Shown: positions 16,458 to 53,106, counted from the stretch's first letter. The stretch is 64,000 nucleotides of DNA from a bacterium (GCA_963692865.2 OY843592.1:2880001-2944000), one strand, 5' to 3'. Made by a program: numbers and translations. The notes: generated from the letters alone by a model not told the origin.

Positions 16458-17010
16458 CACTCCCCCCTTGAGGGTCGGGCTTCCCGAGGGGAAAGCCCGA
16501 CCCTCAAAGGGCTGTTGAAAAACCCCCCTCTGCCCCGCGGGAGCGCATCGCATTCTTGTACCCCCCTGACAAGGGGTTGTTGAAAAAGTCCTTGCAGGTC
16601 AGTCGGTAATCCCGCCGCAGGTCAGACATATATGTCTGACATATCATGCGGCCCAACCTTTTTCGCCTCTCCGGCAACGGGCCGCATGATATGCGGCCCC
16701 TGCAATCGAGATTGCACACCGTCATTCCGGCGCATGCCGGAATCCAGGGACTTTGCTTTTGAATTCGTGTCTTTTCGCATGATTGTTTTTCATGGTCGTC
16801 CTGCGGTTCGAAATTCACCTCGGCTCTGGATTCCGGCATGCGCCGGAATGACGATCAAAACCGTCGAACCCTCCCTTCCCGGTCGGCTGCATTCGCCGAA
16901 TCGCGAAATCAGGTGTTTTTCAACAGCCCCCTCAAGGGGGGAGTGATTTTCCTCCCGCACCAGTCGGTTACATACGCCGAATCATAAAATCTGATTTTTT
17001 CAACAACCCC
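16458..17010. repeat. Nested composite repeat locus between trpD and trpC
   Basis: C/G-run palindrome (16458-16945) interrupted by a TIR element at 16508-16930. Inside are a second left end (16573), a GTAG doublet (16617-16703) and a CGTC doublet (16720-16853). An extra right end lies at 16996-17010. Confidence 0.9.
16508..16930. mobile_element. Non-autonomous TIR element with a 5-bp CTCAA target-site duplication
   Basis: AGGGCTGTTGAAAAA ... TTTTTCAACAGCCCC, flanked by CTCAA at 16503-16507 and 16931-16935. Removing it restores a continuous palindrome. Confidence 0.75.
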
Positions 17011-17027
17011 GAGCCGCGCCGCCTCGC

Positions 17028-18038
17028 TCAGGAATTGGACACTTCCACGAGGCGCGCCAGAACTTTAGCCGCCTCGCCCGAGTCTATCGCCGAGGCCGCC
17101 TGCGCGACGCCATCTCTCAGATCCCCCGCCCTGTCCGCGGCGATGAGCGCGGCGGCGGCGTTCAAGAGCACGATGTCGCGCCTGGGGCCTTTCTCACCGC
17201 CAAGGACCGCGCGCGTGATATCCGCGTTCTCATCCGGCTCACCGCCCTTCACGGCGTCTGAGTCGGCGCGGTCGAGGCTGGCATCCTCGGGCGTTACGTC
17301 ATACGTCCTGATCTCGCTCCCGTCCCACTCCGAGACGCGCGTGGGGCCGGTGAGCGTCAACTCGTCCATCCCGTCCGACCCGTGCGCGACCAGCGCCTTC
17401 CGGCAGCCCACCTGGCGCAGCACGTCCGCCACCAGTTCGGTGAGTTCCGGCGCATAGACGCCCACCAGCTGGCTCTGGGCGCGCGCGGGGTTCGTGAGCG
17501 GCCCCATGACGTTGAAGATGCTGCGCATGGCGATCTCGCGCCTGGGGCCGATGGCGTGCTTCATCGCGCCGTGCAGCATGGGCGCGAACAGAAAACCCAC
17601 GCCCGCCTCGTCGATGCACTCGCCCACCTTCTCGGGCGAGGCCTCGATGTTCACCCCCAGCGCCTTCAGCACGTCGGCGGCGCCGGATTTGCTCGACACC
17701 GCGCGGTTGCCGTGCTTCGCCACCGGCTGGCCCGCAGCCGCCACGACGAGGGCGGCGCTCGTGCTGATGTTGAAGGTGTGGGCGCCGTCGCCGCCCGTGC
17801 CCACCACGTCGACCACGAAGGGGTGTTTCGTCTTTATCCACGTCGCCTTGGCGCGCATGGAGCGGACGCTGCCGGCGATCTCCTCGGGCGTCTCCCCCGC
17901 CATGCGAAGCGCCACCAGATAGGCGCCGATCTGGGCATGGGTGGCCTCGCCCGTCATGATGAGGTCCATCACCTTCTCCGCCTCATCCGCGCTCAGGTGA
18001 CGGCCTTCCACGAGCTTACCGATGGCTTCCTGAATCAT
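17028..18038 (-). CDS. trpD: Anthranilate phosphoribosyltransferase
   Basis: GTGGDG, FNIST, KHGNRAVSSKSG, FNVMGPLTNPA, DGMDE. Confidence 0.98.
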   Translation of the reverse strand: MIQEAIGKLVEGRHLSADEAEKVMDLIMTGEATHAQIGAYLVALRMAGETPEEIAGSVRSMRAKATWIKTKHPFVVDVVGTGGDGAHTFNISTSAALVVAAAGQPVAKHGNRAVSSKSGAADVLKALGVNIEASPEKVGECIDEAGVGFLFAPMLHGAMKHAIGPRREIAMRSIFNVMGPLTNPARAQSQLVGVYAPELTELVADVLRQVGCRKALVAHGSDGMDELTLTGPTRVSEWDGSEIRTYDVTPEDASLDRADSDAVKGGEPDENADITRAVLGGEKGPRRDIVLLNAAAALIAADRAGDLRDGVAQAASAIDSGEAAKVLARLVEVSNS

Positions 18039-18096
18039 GAACGCAAATCCTCATAAAGTGGTGGGTTCTTCATTCGTTTACATTTTCTCGGGCCAA

Positions 18097-18414
18097 GGGG
18101 CTCTTGAAAAAGTCTGTATACGACCCCTAAGGAAATCTCTCCCCACCCAGGAGAATTACAAATCCACTCCCCCCCTGAGGGTCGGGCTTCCCGAGGGGAA
18201 AGCCCGACAGAAGCCGAGCGGTTTTGGCGAAAGCTGATGCGGTGGGGGGTAAATCGTGTTTTATCGTGCAATTTCAATTATACCCCCCACCGGTTCGCTT
18301 GCGGGCATGCGCCCTTACCTCACCGACTCCCCCACAAGGGGGGAGTGAAGTATCCTATTTCGCCGGTCGGCTCCATACGCCGAACCACGAAAACAGGGGT
18401 TGTTCAACAACCCC
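18097..18414. mobile_element. TIR-bounded mini-element enclosing a ~183-bp C/G-run palindromic repeat
   Basis: GGGGCTCTTGAAAAA ... TTGTTCAACAACCCC. The inner repeat 18165-18347 (CACTCCCCCC...CGGTGGGGGGTA...TACCCCCCACCG...GGGGGGAGTG) is homologous to 24633-24816. Confidence 0.7.
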
Positions 18415-18500
18415 GAAAGGGGCGATGGACGCCCTCCCCGAAACCATGCGCGCGATACCCGCAAATTCGGGGCTACCATACCGCGTCCGCGCGGCTTCCC

Positions 18501-19085
18501 TCAAGGCCGCTCGACCCCGCCTTCGAGCGCATTCTGGAGCAGCGCCTTGCCCTCGGGCGAGAGAATCGACTCGGGATGAAACTGAACGCCCGCGACTGAC
18601 TTCTCCCGCACCCGAAGCCCCATGATCTCGCCTTCGTCCGTCTCCGCGCAGACTTCGATTTCGGGAGGAACGCTCTCGCGCGCGAGCAGGAGGCTGTGGT
18701 AGCGCGTGGCCGTCATGGGATTCGGAAGTCCGCGAAACACGCCCCGCCCGTCGTGGCGTATCTCCGAGGTTTTTCCGTGCATGATCCGTCCGGCGCGGAC
18801 GATGCCGCCGCCGTAGACCTGCGCGATGGCCTGATGCCCCAGGCACACGCCAAGGATGGGGTATTCCCCCGCGAATCGCTCGACGAGCGGCATCGAGAGT
18901 CCGGCGGATTCGGGCCGCCCCGGCCCCGGGGATATGACGATCAACTCAGGTCCCAGTCCGGCCACGTCGTCGAGCCCGAACCGGTCGTTTCGCCACACCG
19001 TCACCTCCGCGCCGAGTTCGGCGAGGTATTGAACGAGGTTGTAGGTGAACGAGTCGTAATTATCGATCATCAATACGCGCGTCAT
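18501..19085 (-). CDS. trpG: Anthranilate synthase component II (glutamine amidotransferase)
   Basis: IDNYDSFTYNLVQY, SPGPG, LGVCLGHQ, RYHSL, GVQFHPES. Confidence 0.96.
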   Translation of the reverse strand: MTRVLMIDNYDSFTYNLVQYLAELGAEVTVWRNDRFGLDDVAGLGPELIVISPGPGRPESAGLSMPLVERFAGEYPILGVCLGHQAIAQVYGGGIVRAGRIMHGKTSEIRHDGRGVFRGLPNPMTATRYHSLLLARESVPPEIEVCAETDEGEIMGLRVREKSVAGVQFHPESILSPEGKALLQNALEGGVERP

Positions 19086-19100
19086 GCCGCCTTCTCCGCC

Positions 19101-20621
19101 CTAGGGGAGGCCGCCCCGCGCCACGTCCAGGGCGCGGAGGGAGCCTCGGGCCTTGTTGATGGTTTCCTCGTATTCGAAACCGGGCTTGGAATCCGCCACG
19201 ACGCCCGCCCCCACCTGGAGGTAGAGCCTGCCGCCGCGCGCGTAGAGCGTACGGATGGCGATGCAGGTGTCCATGCTTCCGCCGAAGCCGAAATAGCCCA
19301 CTGCGCCCGAGTAGGGCCCCCGGCGCACCGGCTCCATCCCGTCGATGATCTCCATGGCGCGCACCTTGGGCGCGCCCGAGACGGTGCCCGCCGGGAAGGA
19401 GGCCCTGAGCACGTCGAACGCATCCTTGCCCTCGGCCAGCTCGCCCACCACGTTGCTCACGATGTGCATGACGTGGGAGTAGCGCTCGATCACCATCTGC
19501 TCGGTGACGCGCACCGTGCCGCGCTCGCACACGCGGCCGACGTCGTTGCGGCCCAGATCCACGAGCATGATGTGCTCGGCGCGCTCCTTCTCGTCCGCCA
19601 GCAGCTCCTCCGCCAGCGCCCGATCCTCCGCCTCGTCGCGCCCGCGCCTTCGCGTGCCAGCGATGGGGCGCACCTCGACCCTCTCCCCCTCCAGCCGCAC
19701 GAGCACCTCGGGCGAGGCGCCCACGAGGGTCACGTCGCCGAGCTCCAGGTAAAACATGTAGGGCGAGGGGTTGACCGTCCGCAGCGCCCGGTAGACGGCG
19801 AACGGGTGCACGTCCAGGGCGCTTTCGAGGCGCTGGGAGAGGACGACCTGGATCGCCTCGCCCGCGTGGATGAGTTCCACCGTATCGGCGACGGCCTGCT
19901 CGAACCCCTCCCGCGTGAAAGACGAGTAAAGGCCCGGCATGTTCTCGACGGGGCGTCCGCTCCCGCCATCCTGAGGCGTTTGCTCGGGCTCGTAAGGCGG
20001 GGCGACGGAAGGGCCTCTGAGCTTCTCGATGAGCGCATCGACGCGCGCGCACGCATCCTCGTAGGCGGCCTCCCCGCCGTCATCCGTAATGTGCGCATGG
20101 GCGAGGACGTAAATCTTCTGCGCCGCGTTGTCAAAGATGATGAGCGACTTCGTGATCATGAAAAGCAGTTCGGGCAGTTCGAGATCGTCACGCGCGTTCT
20201 CGGGCAGGCGCTCGATGAAGCGAACCGCGTCGTAGCCCATGCAGCCGATGGCGCCCCCCCAGAACCTCGGCAGGCCTGGAAGGTCGACGGGTATGTAGGG
20301 CTGCATCAACTGCCTGAGCGCGTCGATGGGATCATCGACGATAAACGCTTCGCTCTCCCCCTCCTGCGTGATGCGCACCCGCCTCCCCTTGCTCTCGAAG
20401 ATGAGGTAGGGCTCGCTTCCCAGAAAGGTGTATCTCGCCCACTTCTCCCCGCCCTCCACGCTTTCGAGCAGAAAGGAATGGGAGCCGTCGGCGATTTTCA
20501 GATAGGCCGACACCGGCGTATCGAGATCGGCGAGAATTTCGCGATAGACCGGAATGATGTTGCCCCGCTCGCAGAGAGCGAGGAAAGTTTCCTTGTCCGG
20601 CGCATGTTTATTCGGGTTCAT
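19101..20621 (-). CDS. trpE: Anthranilate synthase component I
   Basis: LLESVEGGE, NPSPYM, ASPE, PIAGTR, EHIMLVDLGRND, YSHVMH, SGAPKVRAM; likely start ATG 20621. Confidence 0.97.
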   Translation of the reverse strand: MNPNKHAPDKETFLALCERGNIIPVYREILADLDTPVSAYLKIADGSHSFLLESVEGGEKWARYTFLGSEPYLIFESKGRRVRITQEGESEAFIVDDPIDALRQLMQPYIPVDLPGLPRFWGGAIGCMGYDAVRFIERLPENARDDLELPELLFMITKSLIIFDNAAQKIYVLAHAHITDDGGEAAYEDACARVDALIEKLRGPSVAPPYEPEQTPQDGGSGRPVENMPGLYSSFTREGFEQAVADTVELIHAGEAIQVVLSQRLESALDVHPFAVYRALRTVNPSPYMFYLELGDVTLVGASPEVLVRLEGERVEVRPIAGTRRRGRDEAEDRALAEELLADEKERAEHIMLVDLGRNDVGRVCERGTVRVTEQMVIERYSHVMHIVSNVVGELAEGKDAFDVLRASFPAGTVSGAPKVRAMEIIDGMEPVRRGPYSGAVGYFGFGGSMDTCIAIRTLYARGGRLYLQVGAGVVADSKPGFEYEETINKARGSLRALDVARGGLP

Positions 20622-20666
20622 CTTTATTCGAGAAGTCGCCTTGTGCGCGACGCCTCTCCTCCATAC

Positions 20667-20703
20667 AAAAAAAGCCACGGGACCAAACAGGCCGCCATGG
20701 CTT
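20667..20703 (-). terminator. Intrinsic terminator of the putative trp attenuator
   Basis: Minus strand AAGCCATGGCGGCC-TGTTT-GGTCCCGTGGCTT followed by a U-run, 45 nt upstream of trpE. Confidence 0.75.
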
Positions 20704-20741
20704 GGGGGGGGGTCGATTCCAAAAAATTCAGACAACAGCCC

Positions 20742-20813
20742 TTATGGCGCACCTCCGGATTCGGCGGAGCGTCGCCAGGGCCAAGCCTCCGTGCACCTTT
20801 CTCGCGTTTTCAT
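20742..20813 (-). CDS. trpL: Putative Trp leader peptide (MKTRERCTEAWPWRRSAESGGAP)
   Basis: 23-aa ORF with an AGGAG RBS and two Trp codons (W-P-W), directly upstream of the terminator and trpE. Confidence 0.7.
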   Translation of the reverse strand: MKTRERCTEAWPWRRSAESGGAP

Positions 20814-20880
20814 CCGCTCCTATCCCCATATAAGAAAATCTTCCTACTCCGAGGAAGATACCCAAGTTTGGGAGAAATGG

Positions 20881-21681
20881 TCAAGCGTCGGTTTCCTCGG
20901 GCCCCGGCGCAGCCTCGGGCGGCAGCTTCTCACCGTAGTCCACGCGCACAAGCGCCAGACCCTGGGGAGGCGCGTTGACGCCCGCAAGCGTCCTGCTCCT
21001 GCCAGTGAGCACTTCACGCACGGATTCGGCAGCGCGCTCGCCGCGGCCCACCTCAACGAGGACGCCGGCCAGGTTCCTCACCATGTGGCGCAGGAAACCT
21101 TTCGCCGTCGCCTCGATGAGAACCTCATCGCCCGCGTGCTCCACGCTCAGGCGCTCGAGGCGGCGCACGGTGTCCTCGGGCCTGCCCTTCTCCCGGCAGA
21201 AGCTGGCGAAATCATGCTCGCCCTCCAGCATTTCCGCCGCCTGCCGCATCGCCTCCAAGTCAAGGTGTTTCCGAACGTGCCAGGTGTATGGACTACGGAT
21301 GGCGCTCGGCGAGCGGCGGTTCAAGACGCGGTAGCGGTAGGTCTTGCGAACGGCGTCGAACTGGGCGTGAAAACCGCCCGGCGCCTCCCGGCAATCGAAT
21401 ATCGAGACGTCGCGGCCCATCATGGTGTTCAGGCCGATCCGCACTTTGTAAGGCTCAATATCCGATCTCGTATGAAAGTGCGCCACCTGCCCCCAGGCAT
21501 GGACGCCGGCGTCGGTGCGGCCCGAGCCGATGATGCGTATCGGCTCCCCGCACATCCTCGAAAGCGCGTCTTCTATTTCGCTCTGAACGGTTCTCTGGCC
21601 GGGCTGGGTCTGCCAGCCGTGAAAATTCGCGCCATCGTATTCTATCCACAGGACGAGGCAGCGTGTATTTTCGGCGTTCAT
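20881..21681 (-). CDS. truA: tRNA pseudouridine(38-40) synthase
   Basis: YDGANFHGWQ, GRTDAGVHA, FHAQFDA, GEHDFASF, FLRHMVR, APPQGL. Confidence 0.98.
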   Translation of the reverse strand: MNAENTRCLVLWIEYDGANFHGWQTQPGQRTVQSEIEDALSRMCGEPIRIIGSGRTDAGVHAWGQVAHFHTRSDIEPYKVRIGLNTMMGRDVSIFDCREAPGGFHAQFDAVRKTYRYRVLNRRSPSAIRSPYTWHVRKHLDLEAMRQAAEMLEGEHDFASFCREKGRPEDTVRRLERLSVEHAGDEVLIEATAKGFLRHMVRNLAGVLVEVGRGERAAESVREVLTGRSRTLAGVNAPPQGLALVRVDYGEKLPPEAAPGPEETDA

Positions 21682-21684
21682 CGG

Positions 21685-24558
21685 TCAGGCGGAATGTGCG
21701 TTCGAAAGCGTCCCGTTCAGCGCTTCACGCAGGGAAACCCCCGTGGCGGAGGCCTCGATTCCGGCGATCCGCTCGGGCGGACCTTCGGCGAGCAGGTAAC
21801 CGCCCTCCTCCCCACCCTCGGGTCCCAAATCGATGATGTGGTCGGCCGCCTTGATGACGTCGATGTTGTGCTCGATGACGACCACGGTATTGCCCTGATC
21901 GACCAGGCGATGCAGCACGTCCAGCAGCTTTTCGATGTCGGCGAAGTGAAGCCCCGTGGTCGGCTCGTCGAGAATGTACACCGTCCTGCCGGTGGCCCGC
22001 TTGGAGAGTTCTCTGGAGAGCTTGATGCGCTGGGCTTCCCCGCCGCTCAGCGTCGTGGCCGGCTGGCCGAGGCGCAGATAGCCCAGACCCACGTCCTGGA
22101 GCGTCTTCATCTTCCAGCGAATTGCGTTGATGTTCTCGAAAAACGCCAACGCCTCATCCACCGTCATTTCGAGCACCTCAGCGATGTTGCGGCCCTTGTA
22201 GCGGACGTCGAGCGTATCGCGGTTGAAGCGCCTGCCCTGGCATTCCGAGCAGCGAACGAACAGGTCGGGCAAGAAGTGCATCTCGAGCCGGATGTAGCCG
22301 TCTCCCTGGCAAGTCTCGCAGCGTCCGCCCTTGACGTTGAAGCTGAAGCGTCCGGCGAGATAGCCGCGCTTTCGCGCCTCGGGCACCTGGGAGAAAAGGT
22401 TGCGAATCGGGGAGAAAACGCCCGTGTAGGTGGCCGGGTTGCTCCTCGGCGTCCGCCCGATGGGCGATTGATCGATGGCGATAACCTTGTCGATGAGATC
22501 GGCGCCCTCGATGGCATCGTGCGCGCCTGGAGTGGCCAGCGAGCGGTAGATGCGCCGTGAAAGCGCGCGGTAGAGAATCTCGTCCACGAGCGTGCTCTTG
22601 CCGCTGCCGCTCACGCCCGTCACGCATATCAACAAGCCGAGCGGAAAATCGACGTTCACGTTCTTGAGATTGTGCTGCCGCGCCCCCCGGATGGAGATGC
22701 GGTCCGCACCCGGCGCCCTGCGCTGCTCTGGGCGGGGGATGTCGAGTTCCCCCGTGAGGTACCGCCCCGTCAGCGAAGCGGTGCTCGAGCGGATATCGCC
22801 AGGCGCGCCGCAGGCCACGAGGTACCCGCCATGCTCGCCAGCGCCGGGACCCAGATCCACCACGTAGTCGGCCGATTCGATGGTCTCGCGGTCGTGTTCG
22901 ACGACGATGATGGTGTTGCCCATGTCGCGCAGGCGGCGCAGCGTATCCAGAAGGCGGCGGTTGTCGCGCTGGTGCAGGCCGATGCTCGGTTCATCGAGTA
23001 CGTACAAGACGCCCACCAGAGAGGTTCCGATCTGGCTCGCCAGCCGGATCCGCTGGCCCTCGCCTCCGGCGAGCGTACCCGAGGGCCTCTCCAGCGTGAG
23101 GTAGTTCAGCCCCACTTTTTCGAGGAACTCGAGGCGCTCGATGATTTCCTTCAAAATCCGCTCCGCAACGAGGTCGCCCCCGTCCGAGCCGTTTTTCTCT
23201 TCAAAAAAGGCGCGCAAGTGTTTGATGCTCATGGCGGAGATTTCGGCGATGCTCTTTCCGCCGTAAGTGACGGCGAGGCTTTCGGGCTTCAGGCGGCCTC
23301 CCCCGCAGGCCTCGCACGGCATGACGCTCATGTATTTTTCCAGGTTCGCCCGCATCCCGTCGCTCACCGTCTTCTCCATACGCTCGGCGAGCGCGGGCAC
23401 GACGCCCGGGAAAACGCGCTCGCGCCTGAGCGTGCGCCGCCCCGTCTTGTGGCGGATCTTCAGCTTCCCTCCCCTGCTCCCGTAAAACAGGATGTTCTTG
23501 TGCCTCTTGGAGAGTCTGGCGAAGGGCCTGTCCGCCGGAATTTTTTCGGCCTCGATGACCGCACGCAGGGCGGAGGCCAGAAAGCTCTTGCTCCCCGCGA
23601 GGGGGGCGATGGCGCCCTCATCGAGCGTGAGCTTGGGATCGGGGACGATTTTCGCCTCATCCATGCGGTGAACCGCGCCCAGACCATTGCACTCGGCGCA
23701 CGCGCCGTAGGGGCTGTTGAAAGAGAACATGCGCGGCGCCATTTCGGGGATGTTCACGCCGCATTCCGCGCAGGTGCACTCTTCGCTGAAGAGGTACTCG
23801 GTGCCGTCGTCTTCGAGGAAAATCACCAGCCCTTTCGCGAGACCCAGAGCCGTTTCGATGGATTCGCCAAGGCGGTTCTCGATGCCTGCGCGCAGGACGA
23901 CGTGATCCACCACCACCTCGATGTTGTGCGTCATGTGGCGGTTGAGCGATATCTCATCGCCGAGACGGAAAAACCGCCCGTCCACGCGCACTCTCAGGTA
24001 TCCCTTGCGCTCCAGATCTTCGAACTCCTTGCGGTAAATTCCCTTTCGGCCCCGCACGATGGGAGCGAGGATTTCGAGTTCCTTATCCTTCCCCAGGCTC
24101 ATCGCCCGGCTCACCATCTGCTCCACGTTCAAGGCGTTCATGGATTGCCCGCACGAGGGGCAGTGCGGGAGACCCAGGCGGGCGTAGAGAAGCCGCAGGT
24201 GATCGTAGATCTCCGTCACGGTGCCGACGGTCGAACGCGGGTTCTTGCTCACCGTCTTCTGTTCGATGGCGATGGTGGGCGAGAGGCCTTCGATGGAGTC
24301 GACGTCGGGCTTCCCGATCTGGTCGATGAACTGGCGCGCGTAGGCGGAAAGCGATTCGATATAGCGCCGCTGCCCCTCTCCGTAGAGGGTATCGAAGGCG
24401 AGGGAACTCTTGCCCGAACCGCTCAGGCCCGTGATGACGATGAGCCTGTCGCGCGGCATGTCGAGATTCAAGTCCTTGAGGTTGTGCTCGCGCGCACCCC
24501 GGACCCGGATTTTTCTCTCCCGCCGCGTTCTTCCGTTCAGGGACGACATGCGGGGCAC
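21685..24558 (-). CDS. uvrA: Excinuclease ABC subunit A
   Basis: [23 protein letters not shown], zinc fingers, two ABC signatures ([18 protein letters not shown]). Confidence 0.99.
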
Positions 24559-24566
24559 CCGAATAC

Positions 24567-25145
24567 GGGGTTGTTGGAAAAGCCCTGATTTCGCGGTTCA
24601 CCGTATCTAACCGACCGACGGAGGGAAGGAATCACTCTCCCCTTGAGGGTCGGGCTTCCCGAGGGGAAAGCCCGACGAAGAGCTGAGGGCGTAAGCCCGA
24701 AAGCGATTCGGTGGGGGGTATAACTCGGAATGGCAATATAACGCATTTTACCCCCCACCGATTCAGCCTTCGCACAACCCGCTCGGCTTCATCGACTCCC
24801 CCTCAAGGGGGGAGTGAAATTCAGCACACTCCCTTTGTGAGACTTTTTCAACAGCCCCGTCAAGGGGGGTTGCCTTTACCTCTCAGGGACTTTTTCATCG
24901 GGCATTCCCCTCGGGATGCCCGACCCCTCAAGGGGGGAGTGAAATCAAAAGCGTGCGCGCAACTCAAAATTGCTTCCCGGGGGTTTTTCAACAGGCCCAT
25001 ATATGTCCGACCTACACACCCTCTTCGAACGGCGACCGTAGGGGCGGACCCATGTGTCCGCCCGTCTTTCAGAGGGGCTTTTCGCGTTTACCCCCCTGAC
25101 AGGGGGGCAAGGGGGTCGCCTTTGCAGGGCTTATTCCACAACCCC
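24567..25145. repeat. Nested composite repeat locus directly upstream of uvrA
   Basis: Left TIR at 24567; ~184-bp palindromic repeat at 24633-24816. Stacked right TIRs at 24844-24858, ~24891-24927 (interrupted by a hairpin), 24984-24998 and 25131-25145. GTAG REP at 25038-25063. Confidence 0.88.
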
Positions 25146-25195
25146 ATGTCCTCTCCAGTCGCGCGGGGCCTCCCGAAGGCGAGGCGATGAGCGGG

Positions 25196-25969
25196 CTAGT
25201 AAAAGATGAGCCCGCCCGTCACGTTGATGTCCTGGGCGGTCATGTGAGCGGCCTCCTCGGAAGCCAGAAAAACGCACAAAGCGGCGTGATCCTCCGCATC
25301 GACGAGCGTCTTCAAGGCCGCCGGCGCGGTGAAAGTCGCTTTCGCCTCCTCGAAAGTGGTGTCGAAACTCTGCGCCATGTTCTCGATGACGTTGTCGATC
25401 CTAGGTCCGGAGGTGGCGCCCGGGCATACCGCGTTCACCGTGACGCCGTACTCGCCGAGTTCGAACGCGAGGGTGCGCGTCAGGCCGATGACCGCCATCT
25501 TCGACGCCGTATACGGCGTGCGGTTCGGCAGGGGCCGCTTGCCGCTCATCGAACTGATGTTGAGGATGCGACCGTACCTGTTCTTCTTCATCGTGGGGAT
25601 GACGTGCTTGGTCATGAGGAACGTGCCCGTTACGTTCACGTCGAAGCACTCCTCCCAATCCTCGCGCGTCACGTCCTCGCACGCCTTGGTGGGACCCGCG
25701 ACGCCGGAGTTGTTCACCAGAATGTCGATGGTCCCGAACCCGGCGAGCGTCTTCTCGACGAGAGCCTGAATCGCAGCCTCGTCCGTCAAGTCCGTGGGCA
25801 CGACGAGGGAGGAACCCTCGGGCATCTCGGCGGCGGTGGCCTCCAGATTCGCATGCGTGCGCGCGGCGAGCACGACCTTGGCTCCTTCGCGCGCGAACGT
25901 CTTCGCGATGACCTTTCCGATTCCCTGCCCCGCCCCGGTTACGATGGCGACTTTATCCTTCAAACGCAT
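25196..25969 (-). CDS. Short-chain dehydrogenase/reductase (classical SDR)
   Basis: TGAGQGIG, DILVNNSG, NISS, YTASK, VNAVCPG. Confidence 0.95.
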   Translation of the reverse strand: MRLKDKVAIVTGAGQGIGKVIAKTFAREGAKVVLAARTHANLEATAAEMPEGSSLVVPTDLTDEAAIQALVEKTLAGFGTIDILVNNSGVAGPTKACEDVTREDWEECFDVNVTGTFLMTKHVIPTMKKNRYGRILNISSMSGKRPLPNRTPYTASKMAVIGLTRTLAFELGEYGVTVNAVCPGATSGPRIDNVIENMAQSFDTTFEEAKATFTAPAALKTLVDAEDHAALCVFLASEEAAHMTAQDINVTGGLIFY

Positions 25970-26012
25970 TTTCAGGCTTCTCCAGTTTATCCGAATAAGA
26001 GTGGATGAATTT

Positions 26013-26435
26013 TCATTCCACCGCAGGCAGTTCCGCTCCCGGGAACCAATAGCCCAGCTCGAAGGCGGCGGTATCGGGCGCGTCGGAGCCGTGCGTGGAG
26101 TTGCGCTCGATGCTCTCGCCCAATTCCGCGCGAATCGTTCCCGGCCCGGCCTCGGCGGGGTTCGTAGCGCCCATCACGTCACGCCAGCGTCTGATGGCGT
26201 CGGTGCGCTCCAGGGCAAGCACCACCGTGCGCCCTGAGGACATGAACGTCGTGAGATCGCCGAAGAAGGGGCGCTCCCTGTGGACGGCGTAAAAACCCTC
26301 CGCCTGCGCTTTCGACATGTGGACGAGCTTCATGCCCAGAACCTCGAAACCCTCCTCCTCGATGCGCGAGAGAATCTTGCCGCTCAAGCCGCGCGCCGTG
26401 GCGTCGGGTTTAATCATTGCAAACGTGCGTTCCAT
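26013..26435 (-). CDS. ndk: Nucleoside diphosphate kinase
   Basis: [34 protein letters not shown]. Confidence 0.98.
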
Positions 26436-26462
26436 GTGCTCTTTCCCTTTCTAAGTGTAGCG

Positions 26463-27359
26463 TTATGTCCTGCCCAGCGCCTTCGCCATGGTGAGGCCCA
26501 TCTCGGCCGGGCTTTCGGTAACGTGAATGCCGCATTCGGACATGACCCGCATCTTCTCGGCAGCTGTGCCCTCACCACCGGAGATAATCGCGCCCGCGTG
26601 GCCCATGCGCCTGCCCGGAGGCGCCGTCTGGCCCGCGATGAAACCCACGAGCGGCTTGGTGACGTTCTCTTTCGCCCAGAGCGCCGCGTCCTGCTCAGCT
26701 GTGCCGCCGATTTCGCCGATCAGGATGATGGCCTCGGTCTGCGGATCGTCCTCGAACATGCGCAGGAGTTCGATATACATCGTACCGATAATGGGGTCGC
26801 CGCCGATGCCCACACAGGTGCTCTGCCCCAGTTCCTGCTCGGTGAGCTGGGCGACGACCTCGTAGGTGAGCGTACCGCTCTTCGAAATGACGCCGATGGC
26901 GCCTTCTCCGTGGATGTGGCCCGGCATGATGCCCATTTTGCAGCCGCCTGGCGTGATGACGCCCGGACAGTTGGGGCCGATTAGCACCGCGCCGCTATCT
27001 TCCATGTGGCGTTTCACGTATACCATGTCGCGCACGGGGATGCCCTCTGTTATGCACACTATAAGCGGGAGACCGGCGTCCACGGCTTCCACAATGGCGT
27101 CCGCCGCAAATGGGGGCGGAACGAAGATGAGCGAGGCGTTCGCTCCCGTCTCGCGCACCGCATCGGCCACCGTGTTGAACACGGGCACACCGTCCGCCTC
27201 CTGCCCGCCCTTGCCGGGCGTTACGCCCGCCACCACCGCGCCGCCGCCTCCAGCAAACTCGCGGCTGTATTTCTGGCACTGCCCGGCGTGAAAGCCTCCC
27301 TCGCGGCCGGTGATGCCCTGCACGAGGATGCGCGTCTCCTTGTCTACCAGAATACTCAA
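26463..27359 (-). CDS. sucD: Succinyl-CoA ligase alpha subunit
   Basis: [40 protein letters not shown]. Confidence 0.98.
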
Positions 27360-27370
27360 AACCAGACCCC

Positions 27371-28531
27371 CTATCGGTTCAGGGCCGCCACCACCTTCTC
27401 GGCGGAATCGGCCATGCCATTGCCCACTGTGAAATCAAGACCCGAGCCTTCGAGTATCTCGCGGCCCTTCTCCACGTTCGTCCCCTCCATGCGGATGATG
27501 ATGGGCACGTTCACGTTCACGGTTTTGACCGCTTCCACGACGCCCTCCGCCAGAATGTCGCAACGCAGGATGCCGCCGAAGATGTTGATGAAGACGGCCT
27601 TCACGTCCGGATCGTCCATGAGGATGCGGAAGGCGTTCTCCACCATCTCCTTGCTCGCGCCGCCGCCGACGTCCAGGAAGTTCGCGGGCGCGGCGCCCGC
27701 GAGCTTGATGATGTCCATCGTCGCCATGGCGAGGCCCGCGCCGTTCACCATGCAGGCGACCGATCCGTCGAGCTTGATGTAGTTGAGGTTGAACTTCGAA
27801 GCCTCGACCTCGAGCGGATCCTCTTCGTCCTCATCGCGCATCACAGCCACCTCCTCGTGGCGGTAGAGCGCGTTGTCGTCGAAGTTCACCTTGGCGTCGA
27901 GCGCCAGGATGCGGCCGTCCTTCGTCTGCACCAGCGGGTTGATCTCGACCAGCGAGGCGTCCATCTCGTCGTAGAATCTATAGAGATTCGTGACGAATTT
28001 CACGCCCTCGCGAACGAGGTCGGCGGGCAAATCCAGCCCGAAAGCCACGCGCCGCGCGGTGGACGGCCATACGGAGAGCGCCGGGTCGACCGGAATCTTC
28101 AGGAGCTTTTCGGGCGTGTTCGCGGCCACCTCCTCGATGTCCATGCCGCCCTCGGTGCTCGCCATGATGGTGGGTCGGCCCGTGGCGCGGTCGAGCACGA
28201 CGCCGAGATAGAGTTCGCGCTCGATGTCGCTCGCCTCCTCCACCCATACCTTCTTGACGAGGCGGCCCTCCGGCCCCGTCTGGTGCGTCACGAGCGTCAT
28301 GCCGAGAATCTGCGAGGCCGCCTCTCTCGCCTCCGCAGGCGATCCGGCCAGCTTGACGCCGCCTCCCTTGCCGCGTCCGCCCGCGTGGATTTGCGCCTTG
28401 ACGACCACCGTCCCGCCCAGGTCCTGGGCGATGCGTTCGGCCTCGTCCGCCGTCTCGGCGACGTCGCCCCTCGGGACGGCCACGCCGTATTTCGCGAGCA
28501 ATTCCTTGCCCTGATACTCGTGGATGTTCAT
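27371..28531 (-). CDS. sucC: Succinyl-CoA ligase beta subunit
   Basis: [53 protein letters not shown]. Confidence 0.98.
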
Positions 28532-28634
28532 CCAGCTCCTCCAGAATCATTACGATGAATACGCTTCAACGCTGCACTTTCAAGCACAATGGAGAATCAC
28601 AATACTTCGGTTGACAAACCCTTTTTGCCGCCTT

Positions 28635-29010
28635 GCAGGGACAGGTCGCGACCTGTCCCTACAGTCTTTACTCCTCCCTTGCAGAGCGCCGACCAACCAC
28701 TCCCCCCTGAGGGGGGTGTTGAAAAAGCCTGCAATGCCGGTATGACGGCGACGGGACACCGCCTTGCCGAAGGGTGTGTGGGGGTCGCATATCATGCGAC
28801 CCGGATTTTCATGCCTCCCGCGACCGGGCCGCATGATATGCGGCCCCTACAAAAGGCAACCCCGTATGCGTTCCCCTGCGGAACCCCCGGCCTGTCCAGT
28901 CATCGCGTATGACGTAGGGGCGTCGAACTTCCCGAAGAGGGAAGTTCGACCGTGCCCGCCCGTCCCTCGTGTTCGCCCCGACGCGGACAGGCACATGGGC
29001 CTGTCCCTAC
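28635..29010. repeat. Composite repeat locus between fumarase beta and sucC
   Basis: GTAG-type hairpin at 28635-28662; CACTCCCCC-CTGAG followed by a left TIR at 28712; REPIN-like doublets at 28778-28850 and 28914-29010. Confidence 0.85.
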
Positions 29011-29052
29011 TGGATATTCAACTCTACTGCAACCGCTCCTCCTGCCCGGCCC

Positions 29053-29598
29053 TTACCTCGCAAACGCCTTGTAGCCTTCGGCGAAAATATCTTTCCCGCG
29101 GCTGTCCACGGCGACCACGACCGGAAATCTTTCGACCACCAGCCTGCGAATCGCCTCGGTCCCCAAATCCTCATAAGCGATGAGTTCGACCTCCTTGATC
29201 CGCTTCGCCAGCAAGGCGGCCGTTCCACCGATGGCGGCGAAGTAGACGGCGCGGTGCCGGGCGATGGCCTCCACCACCGCCGGGCTCCTGCCCCCCTTGC
29301 CTATCATTCCGGTGAGGCCGAGTTCCAGCATCCGGGGCGTATAGGCGTCCATGCGGCCGCTCGTCGTGGGTCCGGCCGAGCCGATGACGGCGCCCGGCTT
29401 GGGCGGCGTCGGCCCCACGTAGTAGAGCGCCTGGCCCGCCACGTCGATGGGCAGCGGCTCACCGCGCTCCGCATCCTCGAGCATCCGCTTGTGCGCCGCG
29501 TCGCGCGCCGTGTAGAGGACGCCGCTCAACTCGCACATATCCCCCATCGATAGGGATTCGACCACCTCGGGGCCGAGCGGAAGGTCTAGCGAGCGCAC
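29053..29598 (-). CDS. Fe-S hydro-lyase (class I fumarate hydratase / tartrate dehydratase) beta subunit
   Basis: TARDAAHKR, YYVGP, GPTTSGRMD, MIGKG, EDLGTEAI, DSRG; TCA-cluster context favours fumarase. Confidence 0.92.
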   Translation of the reverse strand: MRSLDLPLGPEVVESLSMGDMCELSGVLYTARDAAHKRMLEDAERGEPLPIDVAGQALYYVGPTPPKPGAVIGSAGPTTSGRMDAYTPRMLELGLTGMIGKGGRSPAVVEAIARHRAVYFAAIGGTAALLAKRIKEVELIAYEDLGTEAIRRLVVERFPVVVAVDSRGKDIFAEGYKAFAR

Positions 29599-46029: not shown

Positions 46030-46770
46030 GGGGGCGTCGAACTTCCCCGAGGAGGGGTTGCTGGAAAACCCCGTCTTCGACTCCCCCAAACCGCCGCCGC
46101 CTCTTCCCTCACCCGTCGATACGCGGCTTCGTCGCTACTCAGGACGAGGCGGAGAGGGAGAATTGAAAAAGTCCATAGAAGGAGCGCACCGAATTTCACT
46201 CCCCCCTTGAGGGGGAGTGATTCCAGCCCCTCATAGAGCGTGATTTTGCTCGTCATTCCGGCGCACGCCGGAATCCAGAACAGATGAGATTGATACCGCC
46301 TGCCGCCCCGCCTTGAGGTCACAAATTGTGACCTCAAGGCGCCTGATTCGGGTTTCGTAAGCTGAAACGTGAAATCCGCCGGGAAACGATCCATGTTCCT
46401 CTTGACGCTCTGCAGGAAGGCTTTGTCGGAATCACAACCCCTCCCACAATGGGGTTGTTGAAAAAGTCCTGATGAACGAGTGTTTTACGCGACGGGGAAG
46501 GAATGGTTTTTGTAGGTCAGACATATATGTCTGACATATCATGCGGCCCGCTTTGTGGAGCGAAAATCAGGGTCGCATGATATGCGACCCCTACGGGTAA
46601 AACGTAGTTGATCTGAGAGGGACAGGTTTTTCAACAACCCCGACAAAGGGGGGGTTGCATTTGCCCTGTCAGGCGGCTTTTTCAACAGCCCCCTCAAGGG
46701 GAGGAGTGATTTCAACCCTATAGGGCCTGGTTTTGTTCGTCATTCCGGCGCATGCCGGAATCCAGAACCA
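46030..46770. repeat. Composite repeat locus around an ORF6N remnant
   Basis: Left TIR at 46054; hairpin family at 46112-46149; C/G palindrome at 46197-46219; CGTC REPs at 46251-46278 and 46738-46765. TIR element 46451-46641 encloses a GTAG doublet (46512-46594). Right TIR at 46678-46692 is followed by CTCAA. Confidence 0.87.
46285..46430 (-). pseudogene. Fragment of an ORF6N-domain DNA-binding protein gene
   Basis: Translates [44 protein letters not shown], matching the ORF6N pattern (QAVKRN.RFP.DFMFQLT..E...[13 protein letters not shown]). Truncated at both ends by repeats. Confidence 0.75.
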
Positions 46771-47595: not shown

Positions 47596-48225
47596 CTACC
47601 CCGCCAACCCGTCGATGATGTTACGCCACTCATCCGGCGTGACCTCCACGATTCGCATCTCGCCCACCGAGACGCTGCATATCACGACGTCCACTTCGAG
47701 TTCCCGGAGCGTTGCGAGGCTTCTCGCCAGTTCCGCCTCGTCTCCCCCGTCGTCGGCGACGACGATGGTCTTCCACTCGCCATCATCGAGATAGATCACG
47801 TCCCCGGTGAAGAGATACGTCTTGCCGTGAGGGGAGTGGTAGCGGTAGCAGACGCTGTTGTCCGTGTGGCCCGGCGTGTGGATCACCTCCAAGTCGCCTG
47901 CGAGATATTCGCGTGGGGGGGAGTCGAAAAGCACATCGGCGGAAACCGTCTTGGGGAGATATGGTTCCACGAGCGTATGGCAGCAGAGCTTGAAGCCGAA
48001 ACGCCCGGCCACGTCTGCGAGTGAATCGTCCACCTCGTGGCAATGGCTCAGGCAGTGATAGGCGATTCCACCCCGATCACCGATCGCATCGAAATCCTCT
48101 TTGCTCTTCGGGTTGTAGAAGAGGACGTTTCCCCCCGGACGCTCCAGCAGATAAGCGTGCACCGTCAGGACGCCAAACTGCTTCTGCTCGGCCGTCTGCC
48201 ACAGGTCGGGATAGAGTCGCTTCAA
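47596..48225 (-). CDS. Metallo-beta-lactamase-fold hydrolase
   Basis: LSHCHE (variant HxHxD), HTPGHT, LFTGD; GGAGG RBS before TTG 48225. Confidence 0.85.
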   Translation of the reverse strand: MKRLYPDLWQTAEQKQFGVLTVHAYLLERPGGNVLFYNPKSKEDFDAIGDRGGIAYHCLSHCHEVDDSLADVAGRFGFKLCCHTLVEPYLPKTVSADVLFDSPPREYLAGDLEVIHTPGHTDNSVCYRYHSPHGKTYLFTGDVIYLDDGEWKTIVVADDGGDEAELARSLATLRELEVDVVICSVSVGEMRIVEVTPDEWRNIIDGLAG

Positions 48226-48303
48226 GCTCTTCGTCCTCCGATTGAGAAAACAAGTGTGTCGAAAACCCTGCGATGGAGAACGAAAGAACACCGTAGGAGT
48301 TGC

Positions 48304-49038: not shown

Positions 49039-49182
49039 CAAGATTCTCCCGCTTCGGCGCGCGCCCGTATGCCAGCCTCCGGCGCTCAAATCTTCACGAG
49101 GCGCCCGCCTGGGTACTTTTTTTATCGAACTACATTCAATCAATTATATCAACCATATACGACAAACCGAATCAAATGCGCC

Positions 49183-49455
49183 CTAATTCTCCTCGGCGGG
49201 CGGGCCGCCTCTTTCGGCGAACTTCTCCGCGCACGAGACGCTGCAGAACGAACGCCTGCCGCCGCCCGCGCGCTTCGTGATCGCGATGCGCGAGGGGAAG
49301 AACGTCTCGCACTCGGGGCAACTCAGCATCTCGTCGTCCAGGCTGTCTTGCGATCCGCTATTCTTCCGGGCCGCGCTCCCGATACCACTGATCAGGCTGC
49401 GCACAAGATAGAATATCAGCCACGATAAAATCAGATAAAAAAGGAATCGGAACAT
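49183..49455 (-). CDS. Small membrane-anchored zinc-ribbon protein (PP0621/TRASH-like)
   Basis: N-terminal hydrophobic helix; CPEC...FCSVSC. Confidence 0.7.
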   Translation of the reverse strand: MFRFLFYLILSWLIFYLVRSLISGIGSAARKNSGSQDSLDDEMLSCPECETFFPSRIAITKRAGGGRRSFCSVSCAEKFAERGGPPAEEN

Positions 49456-49531
49456 GCGTTCGGGCCTCAGGAAGTGCGGCGAGCGTCTCGAAAAACGCCA
49501 CTCTACACCCAGAACCGCCGGATGGGAATCC

Positions 49532-52500
49532 TCAGGCGCGCGCGAGGGCGGGCGCGTTCGCGTGGTAATCCTGCAGGGAGCGCACCGAATACTCGTTCTC
49601 GCGCAGGATGCGTATCGCGCGTATGGCCGCCTGGCCCGCGGCGAGCGTGGTGCAGTAGAAGATGTTCCTCAAGAGCGCCGTTCTGCGGATGGAGTAGCTG
49701 TCCCGTATCGACTGCTTGCCCGAGGTGGTGTTGAGCACGAACTGCACCTCCCCCGCCTCCATCTGCTCCACGACGTGTCCCGCCTCGCCGTCTATCACCT
49801 TGTGGACGAAGTCCGCCTCGACCCCGTTCGCCATGAGCGCCGCCCTCGTCCCCGCCGTGGCCACGAGCGAGAAGCCCAGTTCGACGAGCAGTTGCGCCAA
49901 GGGGATGATGGCCGCCTTGTCTTCGTCCCGCACGGAGACGAACGCCCGGCCCGAAAGCGGGAGGACGGAGCCGGCCCCCTCCTGGGCCTTCAAGTAGGCC
50001 GTCGGGAAATCCGCCCCCAGCCCCATCACCTCGCCGGTGGACTTCATCTCGGGCCCCAGGATCACGTCCACGCCGGGGAACTTCTTGAAGGGGAACACCG
50101 CCTCCTTGACGCCGAAATGGCGCGGCTCGGGGTCGCGCTCCATCCCGAGCGCGCGCAGCGTCTCCCCCGCCATCACGCGGGCGGCTATCTTGGCGAAGGG
50201 CGCGCCCACCACCTTGCTCACGTAGGGCACGGTGCGGCTCGCGCGCGGGTTCACCTCCAGGATGAAGACCTGGCGCTTGTGGACGGCGAACTGCACGTTG
50301 TTGAGTCCGACGACGTTCAGGGATTTCGCCAGAATCCGCGTCTGGCGCTTGATCTCCTCCACGATGTCGGGGCCGAGCGTGTAGGGGGGGATGGAGCAGG
50401 CCGAATCGCCGCTGTGGATCCCCGCCTCCTCGATGTGCTCCATCACGCCCGCGATGATGACGTCCTCCCCGTCCGAGACCGCGTCCACGTCCACCTCCAC
50501 GGCGTCTTCGAGGAACCTGTCGATGAGCACGGGCCGCTCAGCGGAGGCGCGCACGGCGTCCCGCATGTAGGCGGAGAGCTCCTCCGCGTCGTGGACGAGC
50601 GCCATGGCGCGGCCGCCGAGCACGTAGCTGGGCCGCATGAGCACGGGATAGCCGATGGCGTTCGCGATCGCGAGCGCGTCCCCGGTGTTCGTGGCCGTCC
50701 CCGAGGGCGGCTGGGTGAGGTGGAGTTCCTTGAGCAGGTGGCTGAATCGGTCGCGGTCCTCGGTCAGGTCGATGCTCTCCGGCGAGGTTCCCAGAATCGG
50801 CGCGCCTGCGTCTTTCAGCGCGAGGGCGAGCTTGAGCGGCGTCTGGCCGCCGAACTGCACGATGACGCCGCGCGGCTTTTCGCGGTGGACGATCTCGAGC
50901 ACGTCCTCGAGCGTCAGGGGCTCGAAGTAGAGCCTGTCGCTCGTGTCGTAATCCGTGCTCACCGTCTCGGGGTTGCAGTTCACCATGATGGCCTCGAAGC
51001 CCGCCTCGGCCAGCGCCATCACGGCGTGGACGCAGCAGTAGTCGAACTCGATGCCCTGCCCGATGCGGTTGGGGCCGCCGCCCAGGATGATGATCTTCTC
51101 GCGCGCGGTCGGCGGCGCCTCGTCTTCCTGCTCGTATGTGGAATAGAGATACGGCGTATGGGCCTCGAACTCCGCCGCGCAGGTGTCCACCTGCTTGTAG
51201 ACGGGACGCACATTCATGCGGCGCCGCGCCGCGCGAACGGTTGCCTCATCAGCGCCCTGCCTCCGGGCGATCTCCAGGTCGCTGAAGCCGTTTTGCTTCA
51301 GGAACCTGAGCGCGGCCTCATCCTCCAGAAGACCGGGCGCGCCGGCGTCTTCCTCCATATCGACGAGTTCGGCCAGATGCGCGAGGAACCAGGGGTCGAC
51401 GCCCGAGGCGCGGTATATCTCATCCTCGGACATCCCCTCCCTGAACGCGCGGGCGACCGTCCAGAGGCGGTCCGGGCCGGGTATTCTCAATCCTTTCAGG
51501 ATCAGCTCCTTCCGCTCATTTTCGGATAATCCTTCGAGCTCCTCGGGCCTGGGGTCCGCCAGGCCGTAGCGGTCGATTTCGAGCGAGCGGACGGCCTTCA
51601 TCAAGGATTCGCGGAAGGTTCTCCCGATGGACATCACCTCCCCCACCGAGCGCATCTGGGTGTCGAGGACGGGGGGCGTCTCGGGGAATTTCTCGAAGGT
51701 GAAGCGCGGTATCTTGGTGACGCAGTAGTCGATGGACGGCTCGAACGAGGCGGGCGTCTGCCGCGTGATGTCGTTGGGTATCTCGTCCAGCGTGAGGCCG
51801 ACGGCGAGCTTGGCCGCTATCTTGGCGATGGGAAAGCCGGTGGCCTTGCTCGCGAGGGCCGAGCTTCTCGACACGCGCGGGTTCATCTCGATCACGACCA
51901 TCCGGCCGTCGGTGGGACTAAGGCCGAACTGGATGTTCGAGCCGCCGCACTCGACCCCGACCTTGCGGATGCAGGCGATGGCCGCGTCGCGCATGGTCTG
52001 GTACTCGCGGTCCGAGAGCGTCTGCGCGGGGGCGACGGTGATGGAGTCGCCCGTGTGGACGCCCATGGGGTCGAAGTTCTCGATGGAGCAGATGATGGAG
52101 ACATTGTCCTTCAAGTCGCGCATCACTTCGAGTTCGAATTCCTTCCAGCCCAGGACGCTTTCTTCCAAAAGCACCTGATCCACCGGACTTTCCGAGAGCG
52201 CCCAGGCGAGTTTCTCCTCGAACTCGTCTTCGGTGAACGCCACGGCCCCGCCCGAGCCGCCCAGCGTGAAGGCGGGGCGCAGGATAATCGGGAAGCCGAT
52301 GCCGCGCGCCGCCGCCCAGCCTTGGGCCATCGTGGTGACGACCTCGCTCCGGGGGAGATCCAGACCAATCTCGCGCATCGCCCGCTTGAAGAGATCGCGA
52401 TCTTCCGCGCAGCGGATGGCGGGCAGCTTGGCGCCGATGAGCTCCACGTCCAGCGCGTCGAGCGCGCCGCTCTCCGCGAGAGCCACCGCCGTGTTCAGCC

Positions 52501-52783
52501 CCGTCTGGCCGCCCATGGTGGGCAGCAGGGCGTCCGGGCGCTCCTTCTTGATGATCTCCTCCACCACCTTCGGCGTGATGGGTTCGACGTAGGTGGCGTC
52601 GGCCATCTCGGGGTCGGTCATGATGGTGGCGGGGTTCGAGTTCACCAGCACCACCTCGTAGCCCTCCTCGCGCAGGGCCTTACACGCCTGCGCGCCCGAA
52701 TAGTCGAACTCGCACGCCTGCCCGATGACGATGGGGCCGGAGCCGATGATCAGTATCTTGGATATGTCCGTTCGTTTCGGCAT
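49532..52783 (-). CDS. carB: Carbamoyl-phosphate synthase large subunit
   Basis: [56 protein letters not shown]-terminal MGS domain. Confidence 0.99.
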
Positions 52784-52910
52784 GAATCAGGCCACTCGCT
52801 CTAAGTAAGAAGGTAAATATAGGGAATTACATACTTGCGTTGACGATTTCTTCTCGCCGGTCAATTCATCATTCCCTCTCCAAAACCATCCCTCACGCCC
52901 GGGTTTCCTT

Positions 52911-53106
52911 ACTCCCCCCTTGTAGGGGTCGGGTATCCCGAGGGGAATGCCCGATGAAAAACCCTTGATTCAGCGGTTTGGTTCGACGGTTGTGAAGGTG
53001 TAGGTCGGACATATATGTCCGACATATATGCGACCCGGCCTTTTTTCGCCGCCCGTCATGGGCCGCATATATGTGTGGGACAACCCCGAGGAGGGGTTGT
53101 CACCTA
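52911..53106. repeat. Composite repeat locus between carA and carB
   Basis: ACTCCCCCCTTGTA plus a left TIR interrupted by hairpin 52929-52954; GTAG doublet 53000-53106 with an embedded GACAACCCC-GAGGA-GGGGTTGTC. Confidence 0.82.

Follow-up and report, generated by a model that had tools for sequence, protein, structure and literature searches.

Hairpin and five-nucleotide forms of a slot in the palindromic repeats of a sponge-associated bacterium and its genus

How repetitive extragenic palindromes (REPs) and similar tiny palindromes multiply is unsettled. Their doublets (REPINs) and the REP-associated tyrosine transposases (RAYTs) are described in PMC3116915, while PMC3733652 records REPs inside other palindromes, alternative complementary stem residues in sub-families, and hybrid dimers. 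The only enzymology, as given in PMC8266576, is that RAYTs cut and rejoin REP DNA in vitro: TnpAREP cuts on either side of a REP stem-loop, 5' and 3', and recombines single-stranded REPs, and the known RAYT cleavage dinucleotides are CT and CA. Here we analyze a stretch of 64,000 nt, the window (G000:C1:2880001-2944000), from the assembly G000 of a sponge-associated bacterium (4.15 Mb, 61% G+C, 8 contigs), in which four small hairpins, a to d, sit inside larger palindromic repeats in place of about 5 nt of the host repeat. The genus of this bacterium supplies natural before-and-after pairs, namely the same repeat at the same locus with a 5-nt stem segment in one species or a whole foreign hairpin in another, and with exact junctions. 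Such hairpin cassettes extend the REP, REPIN and MITE (miniature inverted-repeat transposable element) type of repeats by a form not previously described in the literature searched: nothing in that literature, whose coverage was partial and leaves absence unproven, told of a hairpin standing in for a small, set number of bases in the stem of a second repeat.

Among the described systems that are close to these hairpins is that of REPs, REPINs and RAYTs. The hosts of hairpins c and d, as well as a stand-alone form GTAGG-d-CCTAC, are 20-30-nt palindromes with a GTAG tag and hundreds of extragenic copies; many of them form inverted doublets (253 of the host termed REP1), with a predicted fold of the d-bearing doublet at z = -5.7; their sub-families differ by complementary stem changes, and RAYT-like genes are flanked by REPs of their own. 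The GTAG tag is found in REP1, in the REP-c, GGGCGGGC, GGCGGCC and GGACAGG REPs and in GTAGG-d-CCTAC, and is lacking in the repeats P1, T1 and E1. Unlike in the described system, the stem of a REP here gives up 4-5 nt to another, REP-like hairpin, which makes a two-state slot, and the same hairpin superfamily is also housed in the non-GTAG repeats P1, T1 and E1. Insertion sequences of the IS200/IS605 type resemble the present elements in their lack of target duplication, their dependence on hairpins, their TnpA-related HUH enzymes and their insertion always 3' of a fixed motif. However, they lose no target bases, as opposed to the 4-5 nt lost here; a TnpB (PF07282) search of our genome gave no match, the repeats have no replication-strand bias, and the hairpins have neither a gene nor a left/right sub-terminal pair. 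MITEs find a parallel in E1 and the T1-framed elements, which are non-coding, have terminal inverted repeats and vary in presence at orthologous sites; for neither E1 nor T1 did an autonomous partner come to light. The hairpins themselves differ from MITEs in being only 18-28 nt long, with no terminal inverted repeat beyond the stem, no target duplication and a loss of 4-5 nt. In size and behavior, the nearest analogue is the small dispersed repeats (SDRs) of Nostoc and relatives, which Elhai et al. are said to have presented in 2008 as 21-27-nt hairpins with compensatory changes that lie within other repeats and mini-transposons, occur in a single clade and were suggested to be mobile. On that description, our hairpins (18-28 nt, embedded, covarying and genus-restricted) resemble SDRs. 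SDRs reportedly also nest within copies of themselves; no self-nesting is seen among the a/b and d copies listed here.

By sequence comparison, hairpins a, b, c and d form one genus-restricted superfamily of REP-like stem-loops of 18-28 nt, (G)TCR…YGA(C), with paired changes in the stem. The genome has 27 exact copies of the 26-mer a, nine copies of b, two exact copies of c (six with up to 4 substitutions) and 62 exact copies of the 18-mer d (167 with up to 3 substitutions); 27 exact copies of a and 62 of d in 4.15 Mb are far beyond chance, and control patterns, read backwards, had 0 matches in every genome searched. The earlier note on this DNA, whose coordinates and strings for all four hairpins were confirmed when we re-read the sequence, had listed them as four cases. 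Of these, a, b and c constitute a single family: b is what a looks like from the opposite strand, with a compensatory change in one stem pair, TCGGGC[T/A]T...A[A/T]GCCCGA, and c follows the plan of a and b as TCGAACTT-CCCGAAGAGGG-AAGTTCGA, one of its copies having the loop inverted in the same slot. Hairpin d reads TCGGACAT-ATATGTCCGA, and its whole stem TCGGACAT is common to a 28-nt hairpin of the E1 slot. The latter slot also houses 24-, 27- and 28-nt relatives (TCGGTCT.., TCGGCCTT.. and TCGGGCAT/TCGGACAT-CTCCTCATCGGG-..). The paired changes are apparent in 90 copies picked by the loop only: stem pair 3/24 is G-C in 58, T-A in 17 and some other combination in 15; pair 7/20 is T-A in 76 and A-T in eight; and pair 2/25 is C-G in 72 and T-A in eight. 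The hairpins are present as the earlier note had them, with TC...GA ends, although these ends are partly a choice of the cut point, since the maximal perfect hairpins in an unbiased list have units ending in GTC...GAC. That list also brought out about ten abundant palindrome families in the G000 genome.

The replacement itself can be measured at several hosts. Between CCCCTTGAG and GCCGAGC at the X end of E1, the unfilled form has 13 nt and the usual filled one 34 nt, a gain of 21 that equals 26 less 5, with the flanks unchanged (GG-GGAGT-CGAAGA versus GG, the 26 nt and CGAAGA); at the Y end the unfilled form has 31 nt and the filled one 52 nt. Shorter filled forms of E1 also exist, such as GG-a-CAGAAG with 32 nt. 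Hairpin b replaces GCTGT of its T1 host; the loss of 4-5 nt that had been ascribed to it is real, and the figure is 5 nt because T1 arms usually have five G (42/53). In REP1, d replaces GGCCG or GGTCG. For c, the unfilled comparator with GACCC given in the earlier note was wrong: the host is GTAGGGGCG-GGCCT-CCGTGCCCGCCC, from which 5 nt are nonetheless lost. Hairpin d replaces GCGGA in REP-c and GCGG in the GGCGGCC-type REP, the latter being a 4-nt loss read by eye. Thus, the claim that about 5 nt are replaced without duplication is borne out: a loss of 4-5 nt recurs in at least five host families (it is seen in P1, T1, REP1, the GGGCGGGC REP, REP-c and the GGCGGCC REP), and no target duplication was found at any hairpin junction examined. 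A second register at the a slot, (ii), GGGG-a-CAGA, was entertained as another independent 5-nt event and dropped: it is not clearly independent because the intermediate form GG-a-CAGAAG exists, for instance at window position 18182.

The hosts are not four unrelated repeats as had been proposed, since a and b are housed in repeats with a CCCC-TTGA-GGGG core in common, and c and d in GTAG REPs. In the latter the slot comes right after GTAGG(G); in P1, T1 and E1 it comes right after their CCCC-TTGA-GGG(G) mini-hairpin, and a and b are always directly 3' of CCCC-TTGA-GGG(G). Of 668 matches to this core, 128 continue with GGAG, which is the normal P1 arm, and 126 with the start of a hairpin (TCGG, TCTG, TTGG or TCGA), the T1 arm accounting for most of the rest. 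Among 93 a-type candidates defined by the loop, 83 are in P1, T1 or E1 slots and seven are stem-less chance matches, and three of the ten non-slotted candidates look like the same slot with variant flanks; the orientation relative to the host core is identical in all 83 slotted a/b copies (83/83). No hairpin copy was found in unique DNA, either among the 93 a-type candidates or among the d copies genome-wide. These counts run against the notion of a free 'swap-in' class inserting anywhere. The 167 d copies are distributed over REP1 (GTAGG-d-CATATCATGCGRCCC; 143), the stand-alone GTAGG-d-CCTAC (nine), REP-c (two) and the GGCGGCC-type REP (two), the rest being degenerate; d is nested in larger repeated units, each recurring with its own d variant. 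The alternative raised for d in the earlier note, a chimera of two GTAG REPs, fits these observations, since the centre CATATATG is common to d and REP1 and GTAGG-d-CCTAC stands alone in nine copies. In all hosts a motif that donor and recipient have in common, either GTAGG or CCCCTTGAGGG, contains the left boundary of the hairpin, whose right boundary consists of one C or T.

Within the window, the slot is seen in several settings. A P1/T1-type palindrome, CACTCCCCCCTTGAGGG-a-CCCTCAAAGGGCTGTTGAAAAA, occupies 16457..16522 (+), with a at 16475-16500. E1, a palindromic element of about 190 nt with 110 cores in G000, consists in order of a P1 end, a slot, the X module, GGTGGGGGGT, the core, ACCCCCCACC, the Y module, a second slot and a further P1 end. 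One MITE-like E1 element at 18164..18349 (+) has a (18182-18207) in its X-end slot, and a second at 24632..24826 (+) has a (24650-24675) in the slot beside the Y module, with the other end unfilled in the GGAGT form. The U units, of about 55 nt, join a CACTCC arm, the CCCC-TTGA-GGGG core and a T1 arm; that at 24890..24945 (-) has b (24898-24923) for GCTGT, and that at 52911..52961 (+) has a b variant, TCGGGTAT...ATGCCCGA, at 52929-52954. A GTAG REP of the GGGCGGGC...GCCCGCCC sub-family at 28914..28961 (+) houses c (28923-28949) in place of GGCCT, and a partial c at 46037 belongs to a chimera at 46030..46075 (+) in which the left arm of c, TCGAACTT, is joined to CCCCGAGGAGGGG as its centre and to TTGCTGGAAAA, a right arm of the T1 type. 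Three REP1 doublets lie on the same strand: at 16617..16703 (+) the left REP has d (16622-16639) for GGCCG and the right REP is intact, the fold of this REPIN being a predicted one; at 46512..46592 (+) the left REP again bears d (46517-46534); and at 53000..53075 (+) there is the d variant TCGGACATATATGTCCGA at 53005-53022.

Orthologous loci bear on how the two forms relate. At the c locus (28923), with identical unique flanks, G012 and G016 have GTAGGGGCG-GGCCT-CCGTGCCCGCCC, G002 has GGCCC, and G000 has the 27-nt hairpin for those 5 nt. In a tree of the two flanking genes (1575 columns, 13 genomes; G005 was excluded as it has no upstream anchor), G000 groups with G018 and G032 (support 93), and the three unfilled genomes fall in another clade (support 100). 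As the gene tree separates the G000 clade from the unfilled genomes, the gain of c is placed in the lineage of G000. The position of c is taken in G018 and G032 by a GGACAGG-type REP, which paired changes in the stem set apart from the GGGCGGGC type. The REP1 doublet beside the c locus is unfilled in G012, G018 and G000, and carries d in G002 and G011 as the TCGGAC variant and in G032 as the TCAGAC variant. Since d thus occurs on two different spacer backgrounds, at least two d events are implied in this one doublet. The b locus (52929), compared over five species, is filled in G000 alone, with an orthologous U unit lacking the hairpin in G032, G018, G003 and G031. At the 16475 locus, G014 and G031 have an unfilled E1 in the GGAGT form at a common left flank. 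We also observed other hairpins in the doublet orthologous to window positions ~28650-28730: the right REP of G002 holds a hairpin of the form GTAGCGCTCCC...GGGAGCGCTAC, and the left REP of G008 one of the GGCGGCC type. The rarer graft junctions of G002 and G008 are low-copy, multi-copy repeats found in several species.

Within G000, the copies of E1 tell of the slot and its surroundings varying separately. In a tree of E1 interiors, for which 63 of the 110 elements could be parsed at both ends (120 columns), the slot state requires 20 changes at the X end versus 19.1±1.7 in 300 shuffles, which is no signal, and 14 changes at the Y end versus 15.9±1.4. The association of the slot with neighboring positions has a phi of 0.38 at four columns and falls to about 0 beyond column 45 (69 X ends, strict pattern), and among E1 pairs that are at most 3% apart, two of three differ solely by GGAGT versus the hairpin. 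We first read the composites as amplified units only, a reading that was overturned by the orthologous comparisons. Together with the mosaic E1 copies, these show that resident copies switch in place between the 5-nt and the hairpin form, on the time scale of species divergence.

Every junction tested is multi-copy and present in several species, up to 13 others of the genus: the a/b hairpin was found in 13/18 other genomes of the genus and in 0/12 outside it, the REP1+d junction in 11/22 other genomes, the b+T1 junction in 9/22 and the unfilled P1-E1 junction in 16/22, and slot registers (i) and (ii) are both seen in other species. The ratio of filled to unfilled slots varies widely by species, from 2 versus 58 in G008 to 73 versus 103 in G000. 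Variants also keep to their context: T1 slots have the TCGGGCAT variant in four of five copies in G000 and in 11/12 loci of a set that includes G000's own and was retrieved by a probe fixing the 3' arm of that very variant, while E1 X-end slots mostly have TCGGGCTT, TCTGGCTT or TTGGGCTT. Given junctions that are multi-copy in many species, variants that keep to their host and a lack of copies in unique DNA, most copies have spread with their host repeat, be it the REP doublet, the ~190-nt E1 or the ~55-nt U unit, and the hairpin forms themselves are old, with junctions that recur in many species of the genus. Of the 253 REP1 doublets in G000, 203 had both sides classified (50 had one side unclassified), and none of these (0/203) bore d on both sides, versus about 18 expected under independence from 70 and 51 one-sided doublets and 82 with none. 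Contigs C2-C8 of the assembly are 97-98% identical strain variants of regions of C1 rather than extra genome; they explain its reported contamination and make a comparison of strains possible. Of 29 hairpin-like sites on them with flanks of at least 150 nt, 22 are gap-free against C1 and seven are in rearranged repeats; no hairpin gain or loss was found among these 29, a stem finder's list that includes false positives. Joints in contigs from public runs over window positions 16000-29500 were set aside as cross-matches to other copies, contigs breaking at repeats.

For an enzyme, RAYTs are candidates, and the search for such genes flanked by hairpins that the earlier note had proposed produced three loci in G000, one with REP1/d flanks; two are intact and one truncated (tblastn with relatives' genes; NF047646). 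The first, at C1:1531610-1532143, is intact with HUH and Y motifs, and has REP1+d about 60 nt upstream and REP1 copies downstream. The second (C1:17496-18020), also intact, has a GGACAGG-type REP on its flanks and another inside it, and the third (C1:861539-861943) is truncated, with REP-c on its flanks. Against profiles, the genes score E-values of 4e-16 and 6e-18 with NF047646, below its curated 80-bit cut-off, and 24.1 and 26.2 bits with PF01797 (cut-off 23); a first whole-genome PF01797 search had missed them, a matter of sensitivity. A locus search with the RAYT led to five distant metagenome-assembled genomes without taxonomic placement. In the gene at C1:17496-18020, an in-frame GTAGGGACAGGTCGCGACCTGTCC REP separates the HUH motif from the Y motif, and a relative in G013 (L031) has a similar REP-derived insert, translated as ...GTVGTGPRACP..., due to which tblastn with this relative matches REPs genome-wide.

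The view we favor is that compound palindromic repeats carry the hairpins as two-state cassettes, which different copies of a host repeat exchange among themselves, a proposition in which our confidence and our doubt are about evenly balanced. Each host family occurs as a 5-nt form and a hairpin form with exact junctions in common. Switching would proceed by copy-to-copy exchange, anchored in the common left motif and returning at the short right junction, for which template switching during replication at hairpin-prone repeats is a candidate route; for the GTAG hosts, cleavage and strand transfer by the genome-encoded RAYTs, an activity predicted for them, might serve instead. The founding grafts would have been few, about one per host family, each removing 4-5 nt. 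Exchange within a host family is favored by the orthologous flips, the mosaic E1 copies and the left boundary inside a common motif, while a freely inserting micro-element is at odds with the conserved, multi-copy and context-specific junctions, with an orientation that does not vary and with the lack of copies in unique DNA. Several points nonetheless tell against exchange between copies. It does not explain the founding grafts and the recurrence of a 4-5-nt loss in at least five host families; the shared sequence to the left of the slot is only 5-18 nt, short for gene conversion of the RecA type; and the identical d 18-mer sits in four GTAG hosts that are alike on the left only in GTAGG(G). 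The E1 tree is poorly resolved, with 31 of 59 inner branches open, which limits the mosaic argument, and alleles imported from other lineages could mimic switching in place: G018 and G032 are sister genomes that have different alleles of the REP doublet.

It is precisely the constant 4-5-nt loss across host families that gives the best argument for an enzyme-like cut-and-replace reaction, in which the bare hairpin would be the mobile unit: a trans-acting enzyme, for example an HUH enzyme of the RAYT type, would cut the target strand twice about 5 nt apart and paste in the hairpin with no duplication. We rate this as possible at a probability well short of even. The in-place gains at orthologous loci, the same d 18-mer in four host families, the c copy with an inverted loop in the same slot, the uncoupling of the E1 slot state from the tree of interiors and the RAYT genes, one of them adjoining d-bearing REPs, can all be read in this light. 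In its fullest form the idea would make the (G)TCR...YGA(C) hairpins the smallest cut-and-replace units, with an HUH RAYT or an enzyme yet to be named excising a bare 18-28-nt stem-loop and pasting it into the stem of a palindromic repeat, with removal of a fixed ~5 nt; if this doubtful proposal were true, such a 'negative target-site duplication' would be direct evidence that hairpins of the REP type move as single units. However, a mobile hairpin should not be confined to slots, with no copy in unique DNA and one orientation in 83/83 slotted a/b copies, nor should its stem variants be context-specific although other variants dominate the common pool. Further, d never occurs on both sides of a doublet (0/203 versus ~18), 22/29 strain-variant sites are colinear with C1 and lack gain or loss, and replication-strand bias is absent, at ~50:50 for all eight repeat motifs. 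The a/b hosts are without the GTAG tag, and the junctions G/TC and GA/C do not match the dinucleotides CT and CA given in PMC8266576. Of the HUH/RAYT-like mechanism put forward in the earlier note, the part that stands is the presence of RAYT-type genes, one with d-bearing REPs at its flanks; a free class of elements that inserts anywhere is not supported. A local origin, by which fold-back or quasi-palindrome template switching would rewrite the host stem into a new hairpin from nearby host sequence, draws on several resemblances: the loop CCCGAGGGG to the adjacent core CCCCTTGAGGGG, the 3' arm of a, GAAAGCCCGA, to the X-module units CGAAGAGGCCGA and CGAAGGCCGA that follow, and the identity of the d centre CATATATG with that of REP1. 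Paired stem transversions (G-C to T-A) would also be easier by copying of an arm than by two independent mutations. These resemblances are short and G+C-rich and may be due to chance, c lacks similarity to its own flanks, and de novo synthesis would not reproduce near-identical 26-nt hairpins in about 90 copies and many species, leaving this explanation very improbable. We consider it very improbable, finally, that the hairpins are selected functional modules, either protein-binding or RNA-structure elements in transcribed intergenic repeats, with their apparent mobility reflecting selection for combinations. The stems do covary, the junctions are conserved over the genus, and the composites are predicted to fold far better than shuffled sequences (z = -4.7 for E1, beside the -5.7 of the d doublet). 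Yet there are dozens to hundreds of copies whose presence is variable at orthologous sites, no Rfam family matches them in the window, and the stems of DNA palindromes also covary where selection on RNA plays no part.

The paired forms at single loci are defined substrates for asking whether RAYTs or template switching graft hairpins, and repeat families in such genomes, as mosaics of exchangeable modules, matter for assembly, for annotation and for the inference of copy history.

A few further observations concern the repeats that surround the slots. The T1 motif, GGGG(C/T)TGTTGAAAAAG, is very abundant (e.g. window positions 16512-16522 and 46455-46466), and as TTGAAAAA it has 944 occurrences versus about 27 expected from base composition. 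In several species T1 is the frame around intergenic cargo that varies at orthologous sites. One such intergenic hot spot, at window positions 18040-18480, has outer T1 frames common to G000, G003, G012 and G018 with entirely different repeats between them; its orthologues in G031, G014, G004 and G005 are a short spacer without repeats. Another module of about 29 nt, AATCAATGCCGACCG..GGGAGGGATT, is found in the loop of a ATTCCGGC...GCCGGAAT hairpin in two copies (G000:C1:126883 and 2350391), and a related piece fills the end slot of E1 in G014, making it another cassette in two unrelated hosts. An element of about 150 nt with TCATTCCGGC....GCCGGAATGA hairpin ends lies in one strain variant at G000:C5:28230-28450, where the other variant, at C1:344495-344565, has a solo 24-nt hairpin in its place; a deletion between the hairpin ends of the element is possible, as a palindrome present twice forms a direct as well as an inverted repeat. 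A 56-nt indel between direct 15-nt GGGGTTGTTGAAAAA repeats separates strain variants at G000:C4:8078 and C1:1185762. The Rfam scan of the window found no family matching the hairpins or repeats, its sole match being a PyrR binding site (RF00515) at 57182-57289 (-), with 55 bits versus a gathering score of 54.

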